Source of the DNA: an uncultured delta proteobacterium
GTDB lineage: Bacteria; Desulfobacterota; RBG-13-43-22
Reading direction: 5' to 3'
DNA length: 64,000 nucleotides
Assembly (NCBI GenBank): GCA_963716045.1
Contig: CAVQSS010000025.1
Coordinates: 772 to 64,771 of the forward strand
Shown: in pieces, positions 8,128-63,301 of the stretch
How positions within the stretch are numbered: the first letter of the stretch is position 1
How the letters are laid out: every line of letters begins with the position of its first letter
Notes under the pieces: generated by a model
The model's database searches: none
The model's input: the letters and a program-made list of their open reading frames with translations, nothing else
Told to the model about the DNA's origin: nothing
Position numbers and translations under genes: made by a program

Positions 8128-9717
8128 TTGGTCGTGCTGGGTTCCCTGGGCGCTTCCTGCGGGTTCCTCTGGACTCGGGAGAGCTCCTCCGGTCGAGAGT
8201 ATTGGATCGACCGGGGGATCCCGCCGGCCGAAGCTGAAAATTGGAAGACCCTTCTCCCCGGGTTCCTCCAGGATCTCCAGCCGCCGCCCCAAACCGGCAG
8301 CCCCTCTCTTTTTTTCGTTCGAAGGGCCGCCCCCCATCCCCGCCACCGGACTGTCCCACTGAACGACAGGATAAGCCTGATGCTCCATTGGGGATCGGGT
8401 CAACAGTTCCAGGGTTTTTTAGGACTGGGGAAGTTGCTCCGGGGCGGGGACTATACTGCCGAAGATCAAGAGCTCTTCCTGGGGCTGGTTTATAATTTTT
8501 TGGGGCGGGAAGGGGGGCCCTCGGTCTTGGCGGCCGAAAAGTCCCGGCAGATGGACCTGGACGAGGCCCGGAAGGAAATCGGGGAACTGCGCCGGCAAAT
8601 GGGGAACCTGGATTCCGATCAGCACCGCCGGATTTTCTATCTAAAAACCCTTTACGATATCTCTTCGGAACTGGCCGCCCAGCAAGACCCCGCCAAGATG
8701 CTGGAGGAGTTCCTGCTGATGGTCATGGGGGCCTTCGGCTTTAAGCAAGGTTTTATCCAGGCCTTCGATCAGGTCTCCAATCGGACCCGAACCTCGCACC
8801 GGGGATTTGGTCCCAGAGGACCCGAACCCCTTTCTCCCGAGAACTTGATGAGCCTGGCCCGCCCGGAGGACCTCTCCGGAAATATCCCTTCCCTTAAGGC
8901 CCTTCTGTCTTCCGAGATCGACCGGACGGCCGGGTTTACCTCCCCGATTCTCAAGGGACTCTTTTATTACTTCTCGCTCCCCGAGGGCGTCTACGGGATC
9001 CTGGGATTGGGAGGCAAGATTACCTCCCGGGAGATCAACCGGGCCGAGCAGGAACTCCTGCAGACGCTGATTTCCCATCTTCTGGCGTCCCTTTCCAAGG
9101 TCAACTACTCGGAAAAAGTTCTGCGATTGAATCGGGACCTGGAGGAAAGGAATGCCCGGCTGGAAGATACCCTGAAGGAGTTGGTTCGCAGCCGGTCGCG
9201 CATCGAGGTTCTGGAAAAGGCCAAGGCGCAGATCCGCTCGGTTATTCGTAAGGAACTGGAGAGAACCCGGCGCGTATCCCTGGCCGATGTTCTTTTCATC
9301 CTCGTTTTGGGTAGTCTGCTGGGTTTGATCTACAACCTGGCCAACCCCGGCGGGATTTCAGTTTTTTCCCAATCCTGGATACGGGATCCGATTCCCCGGC
9401 TGGCGCCGGCCCAGGCCAAAGCGTTCTACGATGCGGGAACAGCCCGATTCATCGACGCCCGGCCGGAACATTTATTCCGGCAGCGGCGTATCCAAGGGTC
9501 CCTTAATCTGCCCTTAACTCTCTTCGATTTCGTTTACCTGATGAAACTCTCTCAGACGTCCCCGGACCAAAATTTGGTGGTCTACGGCCGGAATGTCAGC
9601 CGGCGCTACGATCTGGAAGTCGGCTTGAAATTACGATCCAAAGGACATACGCGGATCACCATCCTGAACGGAGACCTGGAGGCCTGGCGTCGGTCCGGCC
9701 TTCCTTTGGAACCATGA
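8128..9717 (+). CDS. Membrane protein: GAF-like regions and coiled coils, one TM helix, C-terminal Cys-less rhodanese domain
   Basis: 529 aa. TM at VLFILVLGSLLGLIY. Rhodanese-like RFIDARPEHLFRQRRIQGSLNLP...VVYGRNVSRR has Gly where the catalytic Cys sits. The N-terminus is uncertain (see findings). Confidence 0.65.
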   Translation: MVVLGSLGASCGFLWTRESSSGREYWIDRGIPPAEAENWKTLLPGFLQDLQPPPQTGSPSLFFVRRAAPHPRHRTVPLNDRISLMLHWGSGQQFQGFLGLGKLLRGGDYTAEDQELFLGLVYNFLGREGGPSVLAAEKSRQMDLDEARKEIGELRRQMGNLDSDQHRRIFYLKTLYDISSELAAQQDPAKMLEEFLLMVMGAFGFKQGFIQAFDQVSNRTRTSHRGFGPRGPEPLSPENLMSLARPEDLSGNIPSLKALLSSEIDRTAGFTSPILKGLFYYFSLPEGVYGILGLGGKITSREINRAEQELLQTLISHLLASLSKVNYSEKVLRLNRDLEERNARLEDTLKELVRSRSRIEVLEKAKAQIRSVIRKELERTRRVSLADVLFILVLGSLLGLIYNLANPGGISVFSQSWIRDPIPRLAPAQAKAFYDAGTARFIDARPEHLFRQRRIQGSLNLPLTLFDFVYLMKLSQTSPDQNLVVYGRNVSRRYDLEVGLKLRSKGHTRITILNGDLEAWRRSGLPLEP

Positions 9718-19450: not shown

Positions 19451-19515
19451 CTGTCATCTCAAGCGTTTCGTCAGCCTGTCATTCTGAGTGAAACGAAGAA
19501 TCTCGTCCTTCAAGG
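19451..19515. repeat. Family-2 repeat units (GTCAYYCTGAG core)
   Basis: CTGTCATCTCAAGCGTTTCGTCAGC followed by CTGTCATTCTGAGTGAAACGAAGAATCTCGTCCTTCAAGG. Related to the elements at 55131, 58469 and 60188. Confidence 0.7.
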
Positions 19516-19774: not shown

Positions 19775-19862
19775 TCACCGGGGAGTCACGGGCAGGTGCA
19801 GCAGGTAGGCGGTGGGATGTGGGATGGTTTGAGGGTTACTGAAAAGTTCCTGTGATCGGGGG
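19775..19862 (-). pseudogene. Orphan remnant of a secreted-protein C-terminus carrying the AYLLHLPV..R* tail
   Basis: Encodes PRSQELFSNPQTIPHPTAYLLHLPVTPR*. About 80% nt identity over ~45 nt to the 3' end of the beta-helix gene (24335-24380). Lies in the same frame immediately after the TGA stop of gene 19863-20054. Confidence 0.55.
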
Positions 19863-20054
19863 TCAGCGCTGTTCCGCCAAGGAATTGTTCGCCGAAACGG
19901 AACTTCTGATCAATTCGATCTTCCGGGGTAAAAAGGACTTGATATCCTCCCTGGTCTTCTCATAACAGGGGCGACAGATCCCATGGGAGATCTTATCCTC
20001 TCCGGGAACCCGGCTGATCTCCCGATTGCACCAGGAACATATTACGATAAACAT
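19863..20054 (-). CDS. Small zinc-ribbon-like protein (CxxC...CxxC)
   Basis: 63 aa. MFIVICSWCNREISRVPGEDKISHGICRPCYEKT. Confidence 0.5.
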   Translation of the reverse strand: MFIVICSWCNREISRVPGEDKISHGICRPCYEKTREDIKSFLPRKIELIRSSVSANNSLAEQR

Positions 20055-20332: not shown

Positions 20333-23300
20333 TCAGTGGGCGCGGGGCTGTCGGTAGTACCACTGGAGTTGTCCGGGGCTGCTGTCTTCGTCCACGTTTT
20401 CCTGGTCAACAGTCTTCTTTCCCCGGCCCGGAGGCAGAACCTCTTTCAGTTTCCACTGCCCGTCCAGGCGGCCGAAGGTCCAGTATTCTTCGAAGGGCGT
20501 GACGTATTCCTGTTCACTCAGGGCCTGATCGCCTTTGCGGATGAAACGCTGGGCATGAGCGCTGATCCGCACCGTAAATTCATCCCGGGTGCTGTCCCCG
20601 AAGTTGCGGACCAGGAGCAGTTCCACCTTACGAACGCAGAGGTTGCGGTATTCCACGCGGACGCCCTCACTCTTCCAGTAATTCACCTGGGTTTTCAGAT
20701 CCTCGGCCACCTTTGGGAAAAGCTCGGCGGCGGCGACCCGGGCCGGATCGCCGGTTTCGCGGGCCAGGTAAATATCGAGGAAAACTTGACGAGCCCTTTC
20801 AAGCATCCCGTTTCGATTCCAGAGTTTGTCGGTCTGAGACAAGAAGTTTATCATTCGGTCGATGCGGGTGGCTTTCTGTTCCACCTCTTTTTCCAGCCAG
20901 GGACCCGCCTTCCCTTGGGGGACAGCCTCTTCTCCATAAATACCTTTCAGCGTTTCGTCGGTCAGCATCTCGGCAAAGTTCTCATCCTTAAGGATATCCG
21001 ATTCTCCGGCCTGCTCGATCTCCCGGAGCAGCCAGCGTCCGTTCATCATCTGAAAGGTCCAGAACTCTTGAAAAGGGGCCGGGGTCTGATCCCCCCGAAG
21101 GAATTTTCCCGAGCGGTCGTCCTGATAGTAATCCCGAGCCGAGGCGGTGATTAGGGCGGTGAACTCCCTTTGATCCGCCTTCTCCGCGTAGCGGACATTC
21201 ACCAGGTCGATCCCTGCCACCTTCAGGTCGTCGATTCGGTTGATCTCGTGGTTCCGGGCCAGCCCCTGGAGCTGGGCCGTGTGCTGGGTAAAAAGGTCCG
21301 GCAGCAGTAGTGCCCCCATGGGTCCGTATTCGCGCTTTCCCCAACACTCCTGCAGCTTGAGAAACGTGGCTTCAGCCAGATGGCGCAGCGTTTCCGGGGA
21401 GACGGTGGAGTCCTGCCGGCTCAGGAAAGCCAGCAGTTTTTCGGTCTTCTCCGCCTTGGGGGTGATTTGATTGCGCGGGTAGACGAAATCGAGGTTTTCA
21501 CCTTTCTTCTTGGATATCGAGAATTTGATGGCATGAATTATAATTGGCAATAGGATCATAAAAAAAATAAGAGCAAAACAGAACAGAAAAAATCCCGTCC
21601 AAGTGAGATCTTGGCCGCTGCCCCCGGAGGATGAGCTGGACCCCGAGCTGCGGGACCCGCCCCCCCCTTTGTTATGAGTCACAAACCCGGCGGCCAGAAA
21701 CGTATTCGGCCAGCCGACGGACAGATTGAAGACCGGCTGCGGACGCTCCTCCCAGCGGGTTCTGAGTACCGTGGCCGCCTGGAGGGCGTCGTTTTTCCAG
21801 ACGAGGACCTGCTGTCCGGGATACAGCCTCCCGGCGGGAACGAAGGCTCCGTCGGGGCAACCCACCGGATGATCCACCGTGGCCCGCAGGAGTCCGGCAT
21901 CGGTTTCAACGGTCCGAACTAAAGCCCGCGTGCTGAAGATTTTCGCTATCCGGGTAAATACCATCTTTCCCTGGGGATCTACGGCCTGCACGTGACTCGC
22001 TTTAGAAAGTCGCTCGATGGGGATCAGGCCCTGAAGAGTGCCGATCGGGGTCCCGGACGGCAGGCAGCCGCCCCCCTTGTTGTGGACCACCACGCCTTCG
22101 GCGATGAAAGTATGGGGACCGGCAACCTCGAGATTGAAGACGAGTCCTTCCTTAGGGCCGGAATCCACCCCCCGAACTTTTTGGGCGACCAATCGGCCTT
22201 CTTTCCAGCGGGTGATCCGGTCTCCCGGACGGAGATCCCCGGCCGGGCGGAAACGCCCTTCTCCCAGGCTTATGGGGTGGTCTTCGGTGGCCGGGAGGGA
22301 ACCCCCGGGGGTCTTTATTATCAGCAGGGGGCTTTTATTTATCAGGATGGTTTTCACCAGGCTTCGCACCGTACGCCCTTCCGGGTCAATGGAGAGGACT
22401 TCGTCTCCGGCAGCCAGCGCTTCGATGGGCCGCCGTCCTTTTGGAGTGGCAATCCCGGTTCCGGCCGGGAAGCATCCCCCGCCCTTATTATGGACGGCCA
22501 GGCCGCCGGCGAAAAAGGTATGGGGTTGATCGGTCTGGAGATTATAAACCTGGACCCGTTCCCGGACCCGCTCCAGGGAGACGATCCGCTGTTCAGCCAG
22601 CCACTTCCCGTCAAAAGCCAGAATGGTGTCGCCCGGGGTGAGGGCTTCGACCGTCTTGAAAGTCCCCCGGCCGACATAGAAAGGATGCTCCGCGGTCACC
22701 CGCAGGGTGACCCGATCGGTTCTCATCAGGAAATATTCGTCCGCCTGGAGGCGAAGCACGGACAGGGTGCGGGTGGGTACCAGGTGTCCATCGGGTTTGA
22801 AGGCCCAAAGGGCATCACCCGGCTTCACGGCACTGATGCGCGTTTCCGTGCCGTCCGCTCTAAGGATGGGGCTGTCGGGCAGGAAACAGCCCTTGTTGTG
22901 CAGGACCAGATCCCCGGAGATAAAGGTCCCTCCCGGGCTGACCAAAAGATTGTAAGCCGGGCGCTTTCCCTGAAAACGATGAATCGATTGGACCGCCTCG
23001 GCCTTTAGCGCTCCGGCGCTGAACAGGAAAACCCGGTCCCCCGGAAAAAGGAAACCGGCCTGACGATAGGTTCCGGGGGCCACCATGATCGGATGTTCGG
23101 GGGTAACCCGCACCCGGGTTCCCCCCGCGGATAGCTCCAGGTATTCTTCGGGGACCACCCGGACAACCGCCCGGACTTTCGCTTCCCGGAGTCGGCCGGA
23201 AGCTACAGTCCAGACCGGGTCGTCCACCCCCAGCCTTTCAATGGCCACCGGACCTTTCAGGGTCCTAATCGGAGTGCCCTCTTCCAGGCAGCCGCCCCCG

Positions 23301-23371
23301 CCCCGGGCCCAGGAAAGAGCCGGGCTGAGCAACAGGAGAAACAACCCCGCCAGTCCGATAAGCCGGTTCAT
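20333..23371 (-). CDS. Signal peptide + four tandem Hint (Hedgehog/intein-type) domains + TM helix + two Tim44-like domains
   Basis: 1012 aa.
- Hint modules: nt 22895-23290, 22487-22888, 22079-22474 and 21671-22066.
- Each module starts G-C-(L/F), has T-x-x-H-P (TPEHP/TAEHP/TEDHP/TVDHP) and ends (L/V/T)HN.
- Linkers are K-G(1-3).
- TM helix WTGFFLFCFALIFFMILLPIIIHAI at 21527-21601.
- The C-terminal ~380 aa has two units ending ...F.E.WTF.....W.L.E (Tim44/NTF2-like pattern). Confidence 0.85.
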   Translation of the reverse strand: MNRLIGLAGLFLLLLSPALSWARGGGGCLEEGTPIRTLKGPVAIERLGVDDPVWTVASGRLREAKVRAVVRVVPEEYLELSAGGTRVRVTPEHPIMVAPGTYRQAGFLFPGDRVFLFSAGALKAEAVQSIHRFQGKRPAYNLLVSPGGTFISGDLVLHNKGCFLPDSPILRADGTETRISAVKPGDALWAFKPDGHLVPTRTLSVLRLQADEYFLMRTDRVTLRVTAEHPFYVGRGTFKTVEALTPGDTILAFDGKWLAEQRIVSLERVRERVQVYNLQTDQPHTFFAGGLAVHNKGGGCFPAGTGIATPKGRRPIEALAAGDEVLSIDPEGRTVRSLVKTILINKSPLLIIKTPGGSLPATEDHPISLGEGRFRPAGDLRPGDRITRWKEGRLVAQKVRGVDSGPKEGLVFNLEVAGPHTFIAEGVVVHNKGGGCLPSGTPIGTLQGLIPIERLSKASHVQAVDPQGKMVFTRIAKIFSTRALVRTVETDAGLLRATVDHPVGCPDGAFVPAGRLYPGQQVLVWKNDALQAATVLRTRWEERPQPVFNLSVGWPNTFLAAGFVTHNKGGGGSRSSGSSSSSGGSGQDLTWTGFFLFCFALIFFMILLPIIIHAIKFSISKKKGENLDFVYPRNQITPKAEKTEKLLAFLSRQDSTVSPETLRHLAEATFLKLQECWGKREYGPMGALLLPDLFTQHTAQLQGLARNHEINRIDDLKVAGIDLVNVRYAEKADQREFTALITASARDYYQDDRSGKFLRGDQTPAPFQEFWTFQMMNGRWLLREIEQAGESDILKDENFAEMLTDETLKGIYGEEAVPQGKAGPWLEKEVEQKATRIDRMINFLSQTDKLWNRNGMLERARQVFLDIYLARETGDPARVAAAELFPKVAEDLKTQVNYWKSEGVRVEYRNLCVRKVELLLVRNFGDSTRDEFTVRISAHAQRFIRKGDQALSEQEYVTPFEEYWTFGRLDGQWKLKEVLPPGRGKKTVDQENVDEDSSPGQLQWYYRQPRAH

Positions 23372-23748: not shown

Positions 23749-24303
23749 TTAAAACTTCCCTTGAGGAACCACGCGTTCCGCGGCGGCTTCCACCTGAAAA
23801 AAAGGCTCGGCCTGAAAACCGAAAATACTGGCCACGATATTGCTTGGGAACATCTCCACCCGGTTCTTGTAGCGCATGGCGGCGTCGTTATAGTACTGCC
23901 GGGAAAAGCCGATTTTGTTCTCGGTGTTGGAAAGCTCCTCCTGCAGGGCCAGGAAGTTCTGATTGGCCTTGAGGTCCGGGTAGGCCTCGGCCACGGCAAA
24001 AAGGGAACGCAGGGCCGAGGTCAAGACATTTTCGACCTCGGCCCGTTGCGCCACCCCGCCGGTGAAGTCGACGGCCTGCTGCCGGGCCTGGACCACCGCC
24101 TCCAGGGTCTGTCTTTCGTGGCCCGCGTAGCCCTTTACCGTTTCAATCAAGTTGGGGATCAGGTCATAACGCCGCTTGAGCTGGACGTCGATCGAACTCC
24201 AGGCGCTCTTGACCTCGTTCCTTCCCCGGACCAGCGCGTTGTAAGGAGCGATCACCAGGAAACCCAGGACAACCAACAATACCAGGATAACGATAAGAGA
24301 CAT
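23749..24303 (-). CDS. LemA family protein
   Basis: N-terminal TM. YNALVRGRNEVKSAWSSIDVQLKRRYDLIPNLIETVKGYAGHERQTLEAVVQAR is the LemA signature. Confidence 0.9.
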   Translation of the reverse strand: MSLIVILVLLVVLGFLVIAPYNALVRGRNEVKSAWSSIDVQLKRRYDLIPNLIETVKGYAGHERQTLEAVVQARQQAVDFTGGVAQRAEVENVLTSALRSLFAVAEAYPDLKANQNFLALQEELSNTENKIGFSRQYYNDAAMRYKNRVEMFPSNIVASIFGFQAEPFFQVEAAAERVVPQGKF

Positions 24304-24334: not shown

Positions 24335-26494
24335 TTATCGGAGAATCACGGGCAGATGGAGCAGGTAGGCGGTGGAAGTGAAAACCGCCGAAAATTCCGA
24401 CGTGCCCCGGGCATCGGAGGAGGTGGCCGTCAGGTAGGGGTAAGCCAGGCCGCTTATCTCCAAAACATAATTTCCGGCAGCGTCGGCCACGGTGCCCCCC
24501 ACATAGACTTCCCCTTCCCCGTCGGGGACCCGGCTGTTGAAGATCTGCACCGCGCAGCCGTAGCAGGCCTTCCCTGAAATACGGATGGAACCGAAGGTGG
24601 TGCTTTGGATGACCGGGGCCGGGATGCCGCTGTTGGCCCCGTTGGTCAGGTGGATGCCCAGGCCGCTGTTGGCGTAGATGCGGTTGCGGGTGATCAGGTT
24701 GCCGGTGGCGTTCGGGGTGTCCACCTGCACGCCGTCTCCGCCGTTGAAGGCGATGATGTTGTTGGGGCCGACGAAATTCGATTGGGCCACTGGGCCGAAA
24801 TAGATTCCGTCATCCAGGTTGCCCAAGGGATTCAGCCCCAGATGATCCGTTCCGATATAATTCCCTTTGATCGTGTAAAACCGGCAGATATCGGGCCCGC
24901 CCTCCAGCCATATCCCAACAAATTGATTCCCCGATATAAGGTTGGCCGTACCGGGTGCGTCCCCCCCAATCAGGTTGTTGGCAGCCCGCGGGCCTAGAAA
25001 GAGGCCCGTCTGGTTGCCCACGGCTGTCTTTCCGCCGGCATCGGTCCCGATGTAGTTTCCGGAGATGACGTTATTGGTGACGTCCGCGCCGGTTCCCCAG
25101 ATTATAATGCCTTGGAGGAGATTGCCGGATATGATATTCCTGTGGGCCGGCAGGGCGCCCCCAATGGTGTTGTGGCTGCTGCTGATGTCGATTCCTCTCT
25201 GGTTGGGCAGGGGCGTTACCCCGTCGGCTGCCAGGCCGATGGTATTTCCCCGGATGGTGTTGGTATCGGCAGCGAGGGTGATTCCGACCTGATTTCCAGA
25301 AATGATATTGCCTGACCCCGGGCTGTCCCCTCCGATTACATTGTCGCCGCCGGGCGCCTCCAGGAAAATTCCTGTGTTATGTCCCCGGGCCTCCCGACCT
25401 TCAGGATCTGTGCCGATATAATTGCCGGAAATGAAATTGGAATTGGCTCCATTTGAAATAATACCGATGACGCTATTGCCGGATATTATGTTTCTTTCCC
25501 CCGGGGTCCCCCCTCCAATTACGTTGTGATTGGCCCCGTCCAGGAGGTAAATACCGACATCCTGATTCCCCACGCCTCCCAATCCGGAACCGGTCAGGCC
25601 GATAAAATTCCCCTGGATCAAATTCCTGCTGGTCTCGACCCCCTCCAGGAGAATGCCCAATTGTCCATTTCCCGAGATGAGGTTCCGCTCCGCTTCGGTA
25701 CCACCGCCGATCCTGCTGTGCTGCGCGCCGCCGAAAATGTGAATGCCGTGATTCGTGTTAGCGAGGGAGACCCCGCCGCCGGCATTGACGCCGATATAGT
25801 TCCCGGAAACGGTGTTCGTATCCGTACCGGTTCCGTCGATGCGAATTCCCGACTGGTTGTTCCCGGAAATGATGTTCCTATCGGCGGGGCTCTTCCCGCC
25901 GATAACATTTGCCGAGGCTCCTGAAGCAATGGAAATTCCATTACCACCGTTACCCAGATCGGCATTGCCGGTGGAATCCGTTCCAATGTAATTGCCGGAA
26001 ATGATATTGCCGGTGGCTCCGGCCCCGGTAATGATAATCCCGTGCAGAGCAAAATTGTTGATGATCAGTCCTTTGATCGTATTCCCGGAAGAGGTTATAT
26101 TTAACCCGACACTAACGCCTGCACTAGACCCGTTTATCCTGACCCGCAGCACGGCCGGGGAACCTGCCGTAGCCGGCGAGGCCCCGCTTTGGGTATAGCC
26201 GTCTATGGTGGTGCCGTTGTCTGTTAACGCCGGAAGGGAAGAAGTAGGGGTTATAGTTTTTATAAATAAGGGATCGGGGATATTGAACGTAATCGTATCG
26301 GGTCCGGGGTTATCATTGGCATTGATGATGGCTTGCCGGAGGGAACCTGCCCCGCTGTTGAGGAGGGTTGTTACCACGTAATTAGCCGACCAGGCGTTTG
26401 GGCAATAAGACAGGAAAGAGAAGATTAGACCAGAAAACAGGAAAAACCCAAACGAAGAAGATCGTTCTGCAGCAGAATTTCGGAACCGAAACAT
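24335..26494 (-). CDS. Secreted right-handed parallel beta-helix repeat protein (PbH1/NosD-like)
   Basis: ATG 26494 after GGAGG. Signal peptide present. N-terminal NSGAGSLRQAIINANDNPGPDTITFNI. More than 15 repeats of the ISGNYIGTD..G....GN..GI type. C-terminal ...TSEFSAVFTSTAYLLHLPVILR*. Confidence 0.85.
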   Translation of the reverse strand: MFRFRNSAAERSSSFGFFLFSGLIFSFLSYCPNAWSANYVVTTLLNSGAGSLRQAIINANDNPGPDTITFNIPDPLFIKTITPTSSLPALTDNGTTIDGYTQSGASPATAGSPAVLRVRINGSSAGVSVGLNITSSGNTIKGLIINNFALHGIIITGAGATGNIISGNYIGTDSTGNADLGNGGNGISIASGASANVIGGKSPADRNIISGNNQSGIRIDGTGTDTNTVSGNYIGVNAGGGVSLANTNHGIHIFGGAQHSRIGGGTEAERNLISGNGQLGILLEGVETSRNLIQGNFIGLTGSGLGGVGNQDVGIYLLDGANHNVIGGGTPGERNIISGNSVIGIISNGANSNFISGNYIGTDPEGREARGHNTGIFLEAPGGDNVIGGDSPGSGNIISGNQVGITLAADTNTIRGNTIGLAADGVTPLPNQRGIDISSSHNTIGGALPAHRNIISGNLLQGIIIWGTGADVTNNVISGNYIGTDAGGKTAVGNQTGLFLGPRAANNLIGGDAPGTANLISGNQFVGIWLEGGPDICRFYTIKGNYIGTDHLGLNPLGNLDDGIYFGPVAQSNFVGPNNIIAFNGGDGVQVDTPNATGNLITRNRIYANSGLGIHLTNGANSGIPAPVIQSTTFGSIRISGKACYGCAVQIFNSRVPDGEGEVYVGGTVADAAGNYVLEISGLAYPYLTATSSDARGTSEFSAVFTSTAYLLHLPVILR

Positions 26495-26631
26495 ACGCAC
26501 CTCCGGGAAAAGATGGCTGTTAATCCGCAATAAAACCTCAAAGCAAAGCTTTTTCAGGGAAGGATGGGTGAAATCATATCAGGAAAGGGGATTTTAGGTC
26601 AAAGGTTTCCTTTGATTGCGGCAGTGTCGGA

Positions 26632-31473: not shown

Positions 31474-31616
31474 TCAGGTTAAAATTTTCCTTTAGGATGG
31501 TCTGATTCGTGTTTGTCAATCGATATTGACCCATAGTCATGAAACATGATAATTTTACCCAGCCGATTTGTATTGCAGTGAACGAAGTGAACCCTCTTTT
31601 CTTAAAGGAGATTCTG

Positions 31617-32414
31617 ATGAAACGGAATCGGTCTTCACTGGGAATGCCATTGGTCCCCTGGCTGCTCTTCGCGCTTATTCTCCACACCCCGACGGCTGCT
31701 GTTGCCCTGGCCGATGGCGGGTCAGTTCAATCTTTCGAGCCTGCGGCAGTCCTGAAAGGGGGGGGCCTGTTTTTCATCCCCAACCGGGGTCAGCTCGATC
31801 CCGAGGCCCACTATGTCTTGCGGGGGGGCGACAAGACCCTTTTCTTCACCTCCCAAGGGGTGACCCTGCTCCTGAAAGGGCCGCGGCCGGCCGTGGCGGG
31901 CCGGAAGGAGCGGGCCGCCCTTATCGACGAAAACAACCTCTCCCGAAACTGGGCGGCGCGGTTGGAATTTGTCGGCGCCGAACCGGTGATTCCCCGGGGC
32001 CGTCTGAGCACCCCGACTCAAATCAGCTTTTTCAAGGGAACACCCGACCAGTGGCGGACAGGTCTTCCCACCTATGCCGAACTGATCTACGAAGGGCTTT
32101 GGCCGGGTGTGGACCTGGTTTTCAGCGGGGCCGCCGGCCGTATCAAATACGCTTTTATCGTTCATCCCGGGGCTGATCCGGAACGAATCCGCCTGGTCCA
32201 TAGCGGCCTCCTCGGCGGGAGCGACTACGATTACGGTTACGGCATCGCCGTGGATGGCTTAGGCCAGGCCTATGTTACCGGAGCCACCTATTCCGCGAAC
32301 TTTCCCCGGACCGTGGGGTTCCCTCATGCCGGGGGGGGAGAGGGATGTATTCGTGGCCAAGGTGCGGTCTATCTGGTCCATCTTACTCCCTGTCATCCTG
32401 AGGTGAGGAACTGA
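31617..32414 (+). CDS. Secreted SBBP (beta-propeller repeat) family protein, short, with an ambiguous or frameshifted 3' end
   Basis: ATG 31617 after AAAGGAG. Signal peptide present. FFIPNRGQLDPEAHYVLRG..., then a single SBBP unit GGSDYDYGYGIAVDGLGQAYVTGATYSANFP. A G8 tract sits at 32331-32338. Alternative frames restore RDVFVAKV and the PVILR* ending (stop 32404-32406). Confidence 0.65.
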   Translation: MKRNRSSLGMPLVPWLLFALILHTPTAAVALADGGSVQSFEPAAVLKGGGLFFIPNRGQLDPEAHYVLRGGDKTLFFTSQGVTLLLKGPRPAVAGRKERAALIDENNLSRNWAARLEFVGAEPVIPRGRLSTPTQISFFKGTPDQWRTGLPTYAELIYEGLWPGVDLVFSGAAGRIKYAFIVHPGADPERIRLVHSGLLGGSDYDYGYGIAVDGLGQAYVTGATYSANFPRTVGFPHAGGGEGCIRGQGAVYLVHLTPCHPEVRN

Positions 32415-47325: not shown

Positions 47326-47343
47326 AGGGACCTCCTTTTGGGA

Positions 47344-47513
47344 TAAACTCGAAATACGAAACACGAAATCCGAAACAAATTCAAATGACCAAAATTCAAA
47401 TCACTGAAACGGCGTCCTTTCCTTGACCGGTGCTGGAATCCTTGCATGTTTCGATCATTTGGATTTTGAATATTGTTTTTTGTTTCGGATTTCGTGCTTC
47501 GAATTTCGGATTT
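47344..47513. repeat. Family-1 palindromic element, copy B (complete)
   Basis: Left arm CTCGAAATACGAAACACGAAATCCGAAACAAATTCAAATGA. Inverted right arm TCATTTGGATTTTGAATATTG...TGTTTCGGATTTCGTGCTTCGAATTTCGGATTT. Fills the cooF-flavoprotein spacer. Confidence 0.85.
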
Positions 47514-47525
47514 AACCCATGTTTT

Positions 47526-55130: not shown

Positions 55131-55379
55131 CTGTCACCTTGAGCCCTCGCCGGACTGTCACCCTGAACCCTTCGCCTGTCACCCTGAGCCCTTGGCCTGT
55201 CACCCTGAGCCCTTCGCCTGTCACCCTGAGCGAAGCGAAGGGTCTGGGTCTTTGGCTCAGGATAAACTCCGCGAAGGTCTCGTCTTCCGGTCCAGGGTAA
55301 ATTCCCCGAAGGATCTGGGGATCTGTTGAAAAAACGAGATTCTTCGTCCCGCGCTATCGCGGGACTCAGAATGACAAGC
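55131..55379. repeat. Family-2 composite repeat with five tandem ~21-nt units
   Basis: CTGTCACCYTGARCCCTTSGC x5 (55131-55238), then GAGCGAAGCGAAGGGTCT, GGCTCAGGATAAACTCCGCGAAGGTCTCGTCTTCC, and an inverted terminal arm ...GAGATTCTTCGTCCC...CTCAGAATGACAAG. Confidence 0.85.
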
Positions 55380-57031: not shown

Positions 57032-57181
57032 ATTGAAATCCTTAAATTCGAAACAATCCCTCTTCTCTGAGCGTCCAGTTCGTGGTCCCAATTGAGACTA
57101 ACATCGGGCCTCACCAACCATCTATTAACCACTGGAGTCTGTTTTGCCCGCGCGCGAGATCAAAGGAGGGGTAGTTATTTT

Positions 57182-57246
57182 GATCATTTGGATTTTGGTG
57201 ATTTGAATTTGTTTCGGATTTTGGATTTCGAGTTTCGAATTTTGAA
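57182..57246. repeat. Family-1 element, copy C (single arm)
   Basis: GATCATTTGGATTTTGGTGATTTGAATTTGTTTCGGATTTTGGATTTCGAGTTTCGAATTTTG. No partner arm nearby. Confidence 0.8.
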
Positions 57247-58394: not shown

Positions 58395-58468
58395 AGAGGC
58401 CTTTATTCTCGTACTAAACGCCCATGGTCGTCTGAGCCGCCTACGAAGCATGAAAATGGATATCCCAG

Positions 58469-58615
58469 CTTGTCATCCTGAGCCCTTCGCCTTCCTGTCA
58501 TCCTGAGTGAAACGAAGGATCTCGCTTCGGCTCAGGGTAAACTCAGCGAAGGATCTCGTCTTCCAAGCCTACGGTGGATAAGGGGATTCTTCAGTCGCTT
58601 CGCTCCTTCAGACAG
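58469..58615. repeat. Family-2 composite repeat
   Basis: CTTGTCATCCTGAGCCCTTCGCC, CTGTCATCCTGAGTGAAACGAAGGATCTCGCTTCGGCTCAGGGTAAACTCAGCGAAGGATCTCGTCTTCC, and a degenerate inverted arm ending at 58615. Confidence 0.8.
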
Positions 58616-60087: not shown

Positions 60088-60187
60088 GGCATTTTCCCTT
60101 TCCAGCTAAGCGTTACGAGATGTTTCTTGGATTTCGTACAAAACTCCCGGGCCCCCGGCACCCGCGAAGCCTGAAAATATCGCCATC

Positions 60188-60416
60188 GTGTCACCCTGAG
60201 ACCTGCGCCGGCTTGTCATTATGAGCCCTTCGCCTCCTGTCATCCTGAACGAAGTGAAGGATCTCGTCTTTCAGCTCAGGATAAACTCCGCGAAGGGTTC
60301 CGGTTTTTATCGCATGGCGAACTTCTGGGTTTCGTCATCCGTTGACCGGACAGGAAGCTGAACTTGTTGAAAGACGAGATCCTTCGTTCCCTTCGGTCTC
60401 TCAGGATGACAGGAAG
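60188..60416. repeat. Family-2 composite repeat (complete, inverted ends)
   Basis: GTGTCACCCTGAG..., TTGTCATTATGAGCCCTTCGCC, CTGTCATCCTGAACGAAGTGAAGGATCTCGTCTTTCAGCTCAGGATAAACTCCGCGAAGGG ... inverted GAAAGACGAGATCCTTCG...CTCAGGATGACAGGAAG. Confidence 0.85.
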
Positions 60417-62301: not shown

Positions 62302-62341
62302 GGATAACGTCCTTGATAAAATGATTTATTCGGTTAACCAT

Positions 62342-62546
62342 CAAAATCCGAAACTCGAAATCCGAAATCCGAAACAAATTCAAATGATCTAAATTCGAAA
62401 TTCAAAACGTACCGCCCCTAAATCAACAAGGTCAGTCCAATAGAAAAACTCTACTGTGTGTTTCCTTCAACCCTTGGGGGGAATCCTTTTTCGGTCATTT
62501 GAATTTTGACTATTTGAATTTGTTTCGGATTTCGGATTTCGAATTT
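62342..62546. repeat. Family-1 palindromic element, copy D (best preserved, MITE-like)
   Basis: About 31-nt perfect terminal inverted repeat TCGAAATCCGAAATCCGAAACAAATTCAAAT / ATTTGAATTTGTTTCGGATTTCGGATTTCGA flanking a ~85-nt unique core. Confidence 0.9.
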
Positions 62547-62551
62547 AGCTT

Positions 62552-63301
62552 CTAAAACCCCAGGTAGGTTTTGCGGAGGACCTCGTCTTCGAGGAGTTGG
62601 ACCCCGGAACCCTCGGCGATGATCTTGCCCGAGGAGAGTACGTAGTTGCGGACGGCCATCTGGAAGACGGTGCTGACCTCCTGCTCGACCAGCAAAACGG
62701 TAATCCCCAGGCGGTTGATTTCGGTGATTTTGTCAAAGACCTCCTTGCGCATCAACGGCGCCAGGCCGGTAGAGGGTTCGTCGATGCACAGCAGCTTGGG
62801 TTCGGACATGAGCGCCCGGCCGATGGCCAGCATCTGCTGTTCCCCTCCGGAGAGGGTCCCGGAAATCTGGCCGGAGCGGGTCTTCAGGACCGGGAACATG
62901 GTGTAAATCTTCTCCAAATCTTCCTGGGTTTTCTTCTTATCCTTCTGCAGATAGGCCCCGGCCAGCAGGTTGTCCAGGACGCTCATTTCCCGGAATGGTC
63001 TTCGCCGTTCCGGACACAGCACGAGTCCTCGGCGGACGATTTCATGGGCCGGTACCTGATCGATCCGTTCCCCGTTGAAGGTCACCGAACCTTCCAGAAA
63101 GATGTCCCCGGCCGTGGAGCGGCGCTTGAGTTCTCTTTCCCAAGCCACCAGCCCGGTGATGGCCCGCAGGGTGGTGGATTTGCCGGCCCCGTTGGGACCC
63201 ACCAGGCTGACCAGTTCCCCCGTGTCTACGGACAGGTTCAGGTCATTGATGAGCACGGCCTTTTCATAGCGCACACTCAGATGTTCAACTTCCAGCAGCA
63301 T
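62552..63301 (-). CDS. livF: Branched-chain amino acid ABC transporter ATP-binding protein (LivF type)
   Basis: MLLEVEHLSVRYEK start (alternative start at 63343). Walker A GPNGAGKST, signature LSGGEQQML, Walker B LLCIDEPS. Ends KTYLGF*. Confidence 0.85.
   Translation of the reverse strand: MLLEVEHLSVRYEKAVLINDLNLSVDTGELVSLVGPNGAGKSTTLRAITGLVAWERELKRRSTAGDIFLEGSVTFNGERIDQVPAHEIVRRGLVLCPERRRPFREMSVLDNLLAGAYLQKDKKKTQEDLEKIYTMFPVLKTRSGQISGTLSGGEQQMLAIGRALMSEPKLLCIDEPSTGLAPLMRKEVFDKITEINRLGITVLLVEQEVSTVFQMAVRNYVLSSGKIIAEGSGVQLLEDEVLRKTYLGF

Follow-up and report, generated by a model that had tools for sequence, protein, structure and literature searches.

Gene ends carrying the tail in the window

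We describe here a short peptide tail encoded at the 3' end of a beta-helix gene in a window of 64,000 nt (the whole stretch of DNA that was analyzed; C25:772-64771), together with the proteins elsewhere in the source genome that end in a similar way. This genome (G000) is a metagenome-assembled genome (MAG) of 3.86 Mb in 31 contigs, 77.5% complete and with homopolymer frameshifts, while the MAGs of its order are 76 to 100% complete. An earlier note on this DNA had placed the tail at the end of the beta-helix protein (copy 1), in an orphan frame and at the end of an SBBP-repeat gene (copy 3, readable in the gene's own frame and one base out of it), and all three were found as sequence. The features concerned are as follows.

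24335..26530, minus strand: beta-helix gene, carrier of copy 1, encoding a 731-aa exported right-handed beta-helix protein
24338..24361, minus strand: YLP-box-equivalent tail L-H-L-P-V-I-L-R of copy 1, from direct sequence reading
19775..19815, minus strand: orphan relic of the 3' end of the beta-helix gene, a 37-nt copy reading TAYLLHLPVTPR before a stop
31539..32414, plus strand: gene of a DUF7948 and SBBP-repeat protein, 291 aa as assembled, with the signal-peptide-like segment MKRNRSSLGMPLVPWLLFALILHTPTAAVALA
32331..32338, plus strand: G8 homopolymer run; one G less joins ...GFPHAGG to ERDVFVAKVRSIWSILLPVILR and a stop
32383..32406, plus strand: copy 3 tail L-L-P-V-I-L-R-stop in the +1 frame, bases 32389-32402 being the 14-nt core of repeat family 2
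19452..19505, plus strand: copy of repeat family 2 with the core CCTGTCATYCTGAG, reading xVILS-EAKDL

The beta-helix open reading frame (ORF; 24335-26530, minus strand) ends in ...TSEFSAVFTSTAYLLHLPVILR (also given as ...GTSEFSAVFTSTAYLLHLPVILR) followed by the stop codon TAA at 24335-24337, and the residues T-A-Y-L stand directly upstream of the tail at 24362-24373, so that the whole stretch covers 24338-24373 on the minus strand. The true start is probably the ATG at 26494 (MFRFRNS...), after which comes a signal-peptide-like segment, ...FSFLSYCPNAWSA (also given as MFRFRNSAAERSSSFGFFLFSGLIFSFLSYCPNAWSA). The 731-aa protein matched the Pfam Beta_helix family (E value of 6e-14). An AlphaFold2 (AF2) model computed from a 19-sequence alignment (mean pLDDT, the predicted local distance difference test score, of 88.9; pTM, the predicted template modeling score, of 0.84) revealed a long beta-helix and a C-terminal beta-sandwich with strands at residues 640-706, followed by coil at residues 711-731, where pLDDT was 56 and fell to 42. 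Given this low-pLDDT coil over the last ∼20 residues, the copy 1 tail is predicted to be an exposed appendix beyond the last folded domain and outside the fold.

A family of C-terminal tails throughout the genome

The exact 12-residue motif occurred genome-wide only in copy 1 and its orphan relic, and a 29-nt degenerate pattern was found twice in the window, with 0.00 occurrences expected. At the peptide level, the core [LFMVI]P[LVIMF][LVIMT][LMVIP][RK] plus 0 to 3 residues and a stop ended 28 stop-to-stop frames of at least 200 aa, against 0.76 expected from the internal frequency of the core (∼37-fold), and with a stricter pattern 43 of 62 six-frame matches sat within 2 residues of a stop. 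Crude gene calls yielded 32 carriers under a strict and 41 under a relaxed definition. The 32 strict tails, aligned on the proline, gave the following logo.

Position -3: L/V/I
Position -2: Y16, F9, H4
Position -1: L in 28/32
Position 0: P in 32/32
Position +1: L23, V4, I4
Position +2: I17, V8, L5
Position +3: L24 (also I/M)
Position +4: R21, K11
After position +4: stop in 19 tails, one extra residue in 10, two in 3

The conserved tail is (L/V/I)(Y/F/H)LP(L/V)(I/V/L)(L/M)(R/K) plus 0 to 2 residues, not TAYLLHL..PVILR. Thus, the motif proposed earlier was right in its LHLPVILR part, which is the conserved unit and, with its stop, agrees with the logo from -3 to +4; it was drawn too wide in including TAYLL, as the TAYL(L) before the copy 1 tail is a lineage-specific linker. 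The 32 tails encode their Leu, Ile, Val, and Arg residues with thoroughly mixed synonymous codons, and the sequence after the stop was not conserved; this mixing of codons indicates that selection on the tail acts on the peptide and not on the DNA.

By a home-made hydrophobicity heuristic applied against ORFs of at least 150 aa, signal-peptide-like N termini were present in 29 of the 41 carriers (71%) and in 391 of 2677 others (15%), corresponding to an odds ratio of 14 (p = 1.7e-15). The two enrichments that the earlier note proposed looking for, at C termini genome-wide and among signal-peptide proteins, are therefore both present. The carriers matched 62 Pfam families in all, including SBBP, FG-GAP, NHL, PD40, RCC1, and DUF5122 propellers, beta-helix and immunoglobulin-like (Ig-like) domains, M14 carboxypeptidase, and multicopper oxidase. 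Among NCBIfam domains, choice-of-anchor Q (3 carriers), choice-of-anchor Z (2), ScyF-type NHL (3), and rhombotarget A (2) were detected. Domains of the choice-of-anchor, ScyF-NHL, and rhombotarget types are known for joining to varied C-terminal sorting signals. The usual layout in propeller carriers was a beta-strand, 5 to 8 residues, and then the tail.

Several individual carriers lie outside the window. A 4837-aa ORF (G000 C9:93745-108258) ends in ...CQRKIYLPIIVN and a stop. It shares an Asn end, in place of Arg/Lys, with other tails (C7:73810-74082, ...YLYLPLVLN-stop; C17:13010-14539, ...NYLPIMLN-stop), so that a basic residue at the last position is not required. In addition, a two-gene module is kept in three genera, in which an Lcl_C-domain protein (...VWPVRGGQ) stands beside a protein of ∼185 aa (...FQIYLPLVL(R/K)PS).

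Sites of the Lcl_C two-gene module: L024:7828-8844 and 9039-9587; L037:5984-7571; G000 C7:75053-76766

Relation to the YLP-box and conservation in homologues

Two NCBIfam models, NF050076 (sort_motif_YLP, 11 positions) and NF053834 (ultrashort_CTERM, 10 positions), with cut-offs of 15 and 10 bits, are both described as "YLP-box putative sorting motif-containing protein," and the canonical tails of G000 matched them at 11 to 18.6 bits. The YLP-box is thus already catalogued by NCBIfam as a putative sorting motif. Its consensus, (Y/F)LP(L/V)xx(R/K), recurs within a genome on dozens of exported proteins that are unrelated to each other, as in G000, and it shares with copy 1 (...HLPVILR-stop) the position at the extreme C terminus.

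Searches with the C-terminal 122 residues of the copy 1 protein revealed a YLP-type tail in all 19 of the 19 detectable homologues. Their tails formed a graded series (TAYLLHLPVILR, TAYLLRLPVILR, TAYPLHLPLILR, FQYYLPLLMR, SLYLPLIMR, and NIYLPVILRSY), in which the second form belongs to the orthologue in the related genome G003, 77% identical to the copy 1 protein, and the last two exceeded the NCBIfam cut-offs. The tails of homologues P0016 and P0017 scored 15.5/15.1 bits and 13.1 bits, respectively. In other phyla, distant homologues had ends resembling the C-terminal domain (CTD) of the type IX secretion system (T9SS) in L005, L011, L012, and L013, a PEP-CTERM-like end in L010 (Myxococcota), and an LPXTG-like end in L004 (Saccharibacteria); in these proteins, the position of the tail is taken by classical sorting signals.

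Comparison with known sorting signals

C-terminal sorting tags decide which proteins reach the bacterial surface, and to our knowledge the known tags are each paired with an enzyme class of their own, namely sortase, exosortase, rhombosortase, myxosortase, or PorU. The T9SS CTD folds into a domain of about 80 residues. As the YLP tail may also do, it marks large beta-helix and beta-propeller surface proteins of diderms for attachment, and Bacteroidota-type homologues of the copy 1 protein end in T9SS-CTD-like tails; the YLP tag is, in contrast, a peptide of 7 to 10 residues that is unstructured in the AF2 model. The tripartite signals are LPXTG with sortase, PEP-CTERM with exosortase, GlyGly-CTERM with rhombosortase, and MYXO-CTERM with myxosortase (bioRxiv 10.1101/2023.06.07.544157; PMC3237569; PMC11980579). 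The YLP tail has in common with them the C-terminal site on signal-peptide proteins, the many-to-one logic, the order of elements (signature motif, hydrophobic part, basic residue), and the same "choice-of-anchor" cargo domain families. However, its hydrophobic part is 3 residues instead of a transmembrane helix, and a single basic residue stands in place of an Arg cluster. The signatures themselves differ as well: a tail of the copy 1 type has the LP of LPXTG but no TG and no helix, lacks the PEP motif and helix of PEP-CTERM and the Gly/Ser-rich motif of GlyGly-CTERM, and has no Cys as in MYXO-CTERM.

Phyletic distribution and candidate machinery

The distribution of the tag was estimated from six-frame NF050076 matches at an E value of ≤1.

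Genus g1 (G000-G003): 18, 11, 10, and 7 matches
Genus g3 (G005): 12 matches
Genus g2 (G007): 9 matches
Genus g4 (15 genomes): 0-2 matches
Other families of the phylum (20 genomes): 0-3 matches
Other phyla (10 genomes, including one Anaerolineales MAG): 0-2 matches

In our genome collection the order consists only of genera g1 to g4, so that the tag occurs in three of four genera; the Anaerolineales MAG (L003) had 0 matches. BamA of about 900 aa was found in all 10 of the 10 genomes tested, and the lineage is therefore diderm. The host of this YLP-box is thus a BamA-bearing diderm labeled "delta proteobacterium."

The earlier note also proposed looking for a co-occurring protease or transpeptidase, and here the outcome was negative: across the 20 genomes of the order, five sorting-enzyme classes were either absent or uncorrelated with the tag. 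Sortase (PF04203) was found in 0 of the 20 genomes, with positive controls matching, and C25/PorU peptidase (PF01364) in 0 of the 20 above the cut-off. Exosortase (PF09721) was present only in the tag-positive G000 and G001 and the tag-negative G013, G015, and G020, and not in the tag-positive G002, G003, G005, and G007; it does not correlate with the tag. The CPBP family (PF02517), to which myxosortase belongs (bioRxiv 10.1101/2023.06.07.544157), was not found in the tag-positive G000, G001, G003, and G005. Rhomboid was a single copy in 17 of the 20 genomes, and a second copy occurred in the tag-positive G005 as well as in the tag-negative G012 and G019; no extra rhomboid therefore tracks the tag. 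We infer that the partner, if any, falls outside the known sorting-enzyme classes.

Clustering of 321 neighbors of carrier genes in G000 yielded only response regulators, ATP-binding cassette (ABC) ATPases, toxin-antitoxin pairs, and two pseudopilins, and clustering of 20 neighborhoods in G001, G005, and G007 yielded Liv-type ABC transporters, AMP-binding enzymes, membrane-fusion proteins, integrases, and Lcl_C proteins. The recurrent families are all multicopy, and their recurrence was judged to be within chance.

Two further candidates were considered and set aside. A second Omp85 is absent from the YLP-positive G005 and present in the YLP-negative G013. The matches of YLP-tailed proteins to lasso-peptidase/Dpp5 models probably reflect the beta-propeller only, since no S9-typical G-x-S-x-G-G site was found beside these matches. 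Regarding the Omp85 locus, the G000 gene (C9:83143-88969, outside the window) is split by a frameshift and adjoins a 1311-aa ORF, with which it looks like a TamA/TamB-like pair from size and arrangement only; it lies 0.2 to 5 kb from two YLP-tailed genes, and the G003 copy lies 4 kb from a YLP match. The tail is also carried by two HExxH proteins and by an M14 zinc carboxypeptidase (G000 C6:7712-9028, outside the window; Pfam E value of 7e-55) that ends in ...HLFFPIVLR-stop and is a candidate for tail trimming.

Proposed role of the tail and alternative explanations

Taken together, these data indicate, with a probability of about 0.75, that the copy 1 tail belongs to a YLP-box-type tag of exported proteins. 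In G000 this would be an ultrashort C-terminal tag of 7 to 10 residues on about 40 otherwise unrelated Sec-exported proteins, mostly beta-propeller, beta-helix, or Ig-like proteins of the surface or the extracellular space. The earlier suggestion of a sorting or processing tag on exported proteins is borne out by the C-terminal enrichment, the link to signal peptides, the retention of the tail in every detectable homologue, and the NCBIfam matches. The carriers would leave the cytoplasm by Sec export with the tail at the extreme C terminus. By analogy with the tripartite signals, a factor may then read the invariant Leu-Pro together with the short hydrophobic-plus-basic end, and may either cleave the tail and attach the protein or retain or target the protein at the cell surface. 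In this respect, the tag resembles a scaled-down version of the LPXTG/PEP-CTERM design of signature motif, hydrophobic stretch, and basic residue.

Several points weigh against this explanation. At an E value of ≤10, neither NF050076 nor NF053834 matched the tail of copy 1, of copy 3, or of the orphan. Copy 1 differs from the YLP-box in that His replaces the Tyr, and both models fail to detect it; since it falls below them while the genome's tails and the homologue tails match, it is a subthreshold, divergent His-for-Tyr member, whose membership would rest on continuity through the homologues and on the genome's own logo. We infer cleavage, attachment, and targeting by analogy only. Three hydrophobic residues are too few to span a membrane, so recognition must differ from that of the tripartite signals, and the analogy with these may be superficial. 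Moreover, the signal-peptide calls come from the heuristic and not from SignalP, enzyme absences in single genomes are soft because they are read from MAGs, and the neighbors of carrier genes in four genomes included no recurrent enzyme, receptor, or conserved gene. No paper on the motif, experimental or other, was found in the literature under the YLP-box name or the NCBIfam accessions.

The alternative that survives best is a variant of this explanation, not its opposite: the tag would be a noncovalent docking or retention peptide, read by a receptor, a secretion component, or the envelope and never cleaved, with no sortase-like enzyme involved. KDEL, PTS1, and PDZ ligands are examples of recognized, uncleaved peptides. 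The results on the five enzyme classes and on the carrier neighbors, the shortness of the tail relative to a membrane span, and its exposed, flexible state in the AF2 model are all in line with docking. However, a candidate receptor was likewise not found among the carrier neighbors, and the 0 to 2 variable residues after the basic one, together with the Asn ends, argue against a fixed carboxyl end read in the manner of PDZ or Tsp. Docking is treated as a rather unlikely full replacement for a YLP-box sorting tag; within the YLP-box reading itself, processing and uncleaved docking are split roughly evenly.

If the copy 1 tail is a YLP-box tag, its occurrence in a diderm, deltaproteobacterium-type order, in three of four genera, is new. 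The His variant escapes the curated models, and automatic annotation therefore undercounts carriers. The YLP-box is too short to work as other sorting tags do, and no enzyme class known so far can serve as its partner here. We tentatively suggest that it is served by a not-yet-described kind of sorting or targeting machinery and that this small diderm order is a place to find it; the difference in presence between sister genera makes a comparative search practical.

Copy 3 and the repeat-derived alternative

The end of the SBBP gene reads GAVYLVHLTPCHPEVRN (also given as AVYLVHLTPCHPEVRN) in the frame of the ORF and GGERDVFVAKVRSIWSILLPVILR in the +1 frame, each before a stop, and shortening the G8 run by one base gives ...FPHAGGERDVFVAKVRSIWSILLPVILR and a stop. 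The 3' end of this gene is probably frameshifted. Its homologues in related genomes are frames of 775 to 779 aa, with no close orthologue. Long ORFs that switch frame just before a YLP tail were also seen at G000 C7:77288 (a C9 run) and C12:612; the assembly probably carries homopolymer indels, and short "orphan" frames need caution.

These observations bear on a second alternative, in which repeat family 2 (core CCTGTCATCCTGAG) gives rise to the tails incidentally, by reading P-V-I-L-S/R in frame at gene ends. The core has 274 genome copies within 2 mismatches, 62 of them exact. For copy 3 the case has some force. Its DNA is identical to the 14-nt core, a match that, for a PVILR peptide encoded with the codon frequencies of this genome, has a probability of ∼0.002. 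Terminal [LFM]PVIL[RK] tails number only 5. In addition, copy 3 needs a frameshift, Leu at -2 occurs in 0 of 32 secure tails, and the protein has 291 aa against homologue frames of ∼780 aa. On the other hand, the copy 3 flanks are not clearly repeat-like (12/36 and 8/23 repeat-flank matches versus medians of 14 and 11), its layout of a strand (DVFVAKV, which we take to be the SBBP strand motif), 6 residues, tail, and stop is that of other carriers, and a run such as G8 is a typical place for indels, C7:77288 being a similar case. As the source of the whole family, the repeat is ruled out: the 32 tails use unrelated codons and read mostly LPL, not LPV; the core is matched by copy 3 alone and not by copy 1 or any other tail; and of the 274 repeat copies, 248 lie between genes or within short ORFs, most reading xVILSEAKDL with Ser in place of Arg and no stop. 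Thus, the caveat of a DNA-repeat origin raised earlier does not explain the family and was justified for copy 3, which is either a true tail masked by an indel in a homopolymer or a look-alike derived from a repeat core. Less likely than the new machinery suggested above is that YLP-like tails can arise de novo where the abundant intergenic repeat cores, with the reading P-V-I-L-(S/R), fall at the ends of genes; copy 3 might be an example. Among the three copies, copy 1 is the only secure functional instance.

The orphan and the mobile-cassette alternative

The orphan frame on the minus strand, a 35-codon stop-to-stop frame ending at 19775, reads ...SNPQTIPHPTAYLLHLPVTPR before its stop and lies within no called gene. 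Its bases 19779-19815 matched copy 1 (24339-24375) at 33 of 37 nt (89%), with a best local alignment of 28/30, whereas copy 1 and copy 3 had no significant DNA similarity; the 75 to 80% identity reported earlier for all three copies does not hold. The orphan tail is decayed, with T-P in place of the I-L of the motif. Directly upstream stands a zinc-ribbon-like ORF (19863-20054, minus strand) of 63 aa with two CxxC pairs and no Pfam match. The orphan had been described as in frame with this ORF; their frames differ by one base, the stop codons being 88 nt apart, and readthrough in the zinc-ribbon frame gives ...AEQR-stop-PPITGTFQ-stop-PSNH... and no tail.

Among G000 and five related genomes, the orphan was present in G000 only; G003 has a single, gene-end copy of the relic DNA, and the four other relatives have none. 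Synteny with G003 ends exactly at the stop codon of the beta-helix gene. Past the orphan, the DNA had no homology to the DNA that follows the G003 orthologue, and an insertion scar was rejected on this ground. We read the orphan as a dead, noncoding relic of 30 to 37 nt left by a local rearrangement of the same gene end.

The DNA shared by copy 1 and the orphan, 4.5 kb apart, the break in synteny with the sister species at the stop codon, and the variety of C-terminal signals that the same domains carry over evolutionary time would fit a mobile 3' cassette that carries the tail between genes as DNA, as the earlier note had alternatively proposed. However, this is the single such DNA pair in the genome, with none in the five relatives; its orphan member is noncoding and decayed; the remaining tails differ in codons and have no DNA in common; and neither a recombinase site nor a flanking repeat was observed. 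The cassette therefore has no DNA support, and we regard it as very improbable.

Least probable of all is that the tail is a structural element, forming the final strand of a C-terminal domain common to the carriers, or that the resemblance arose by chance, as the tail follows a beta-propeller strand by only 5 to 8 residues in several carriers but is attached to unrelated folds (beta-helix, SBBP, FG-GAP, NHL, RCC1, M14 carboxypeptidase, and multicopper oxidase) and is unstructured with low pLDDT in the AF2 model, while chance is ruled out by the counts of 28 versus 0.76 and 43/62 given above.

Neighboring genes and repeat families

Downstream of the beta-helix gene, at a distance of 32 nt, lies a LemA gene (23749-24303, minus strand), followed by a gene for a 1012-aa protein (20333-23371, minus strand) that contains a Tim44-like domain and several modules of the Hint/intein type.

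Besides the copy listed above, repeat family 2 occurs in the window at 55150-55325, 58465-58565, and 60183-60413. It consists of tandem units of 21 to 25 nt (...GAGCCCTTCGCCT...; CCCTTCGCCT units) and ends in CGAAGCGAAGGATCTC plus a second arm, GGCTCAGGrTAAACTCCGCGAAGG, its copies often being paired as inverted repeats. This repetitive extragenic palindromic (REP)-like family shares the 14-nt string with the copy 3 tail DNA but is tandem or hairpin-forming, and its DNA is unrelated to that of the other tails. A separate AT-rich repeat family (TTTGAATTTGTTTCGGATTTCGAATTTCGG...) was found at 1597-1665, 47339-47519, 57163-57245, and 62341-62555, forming inverted pairs 37 to 98 nt apart at two sites.

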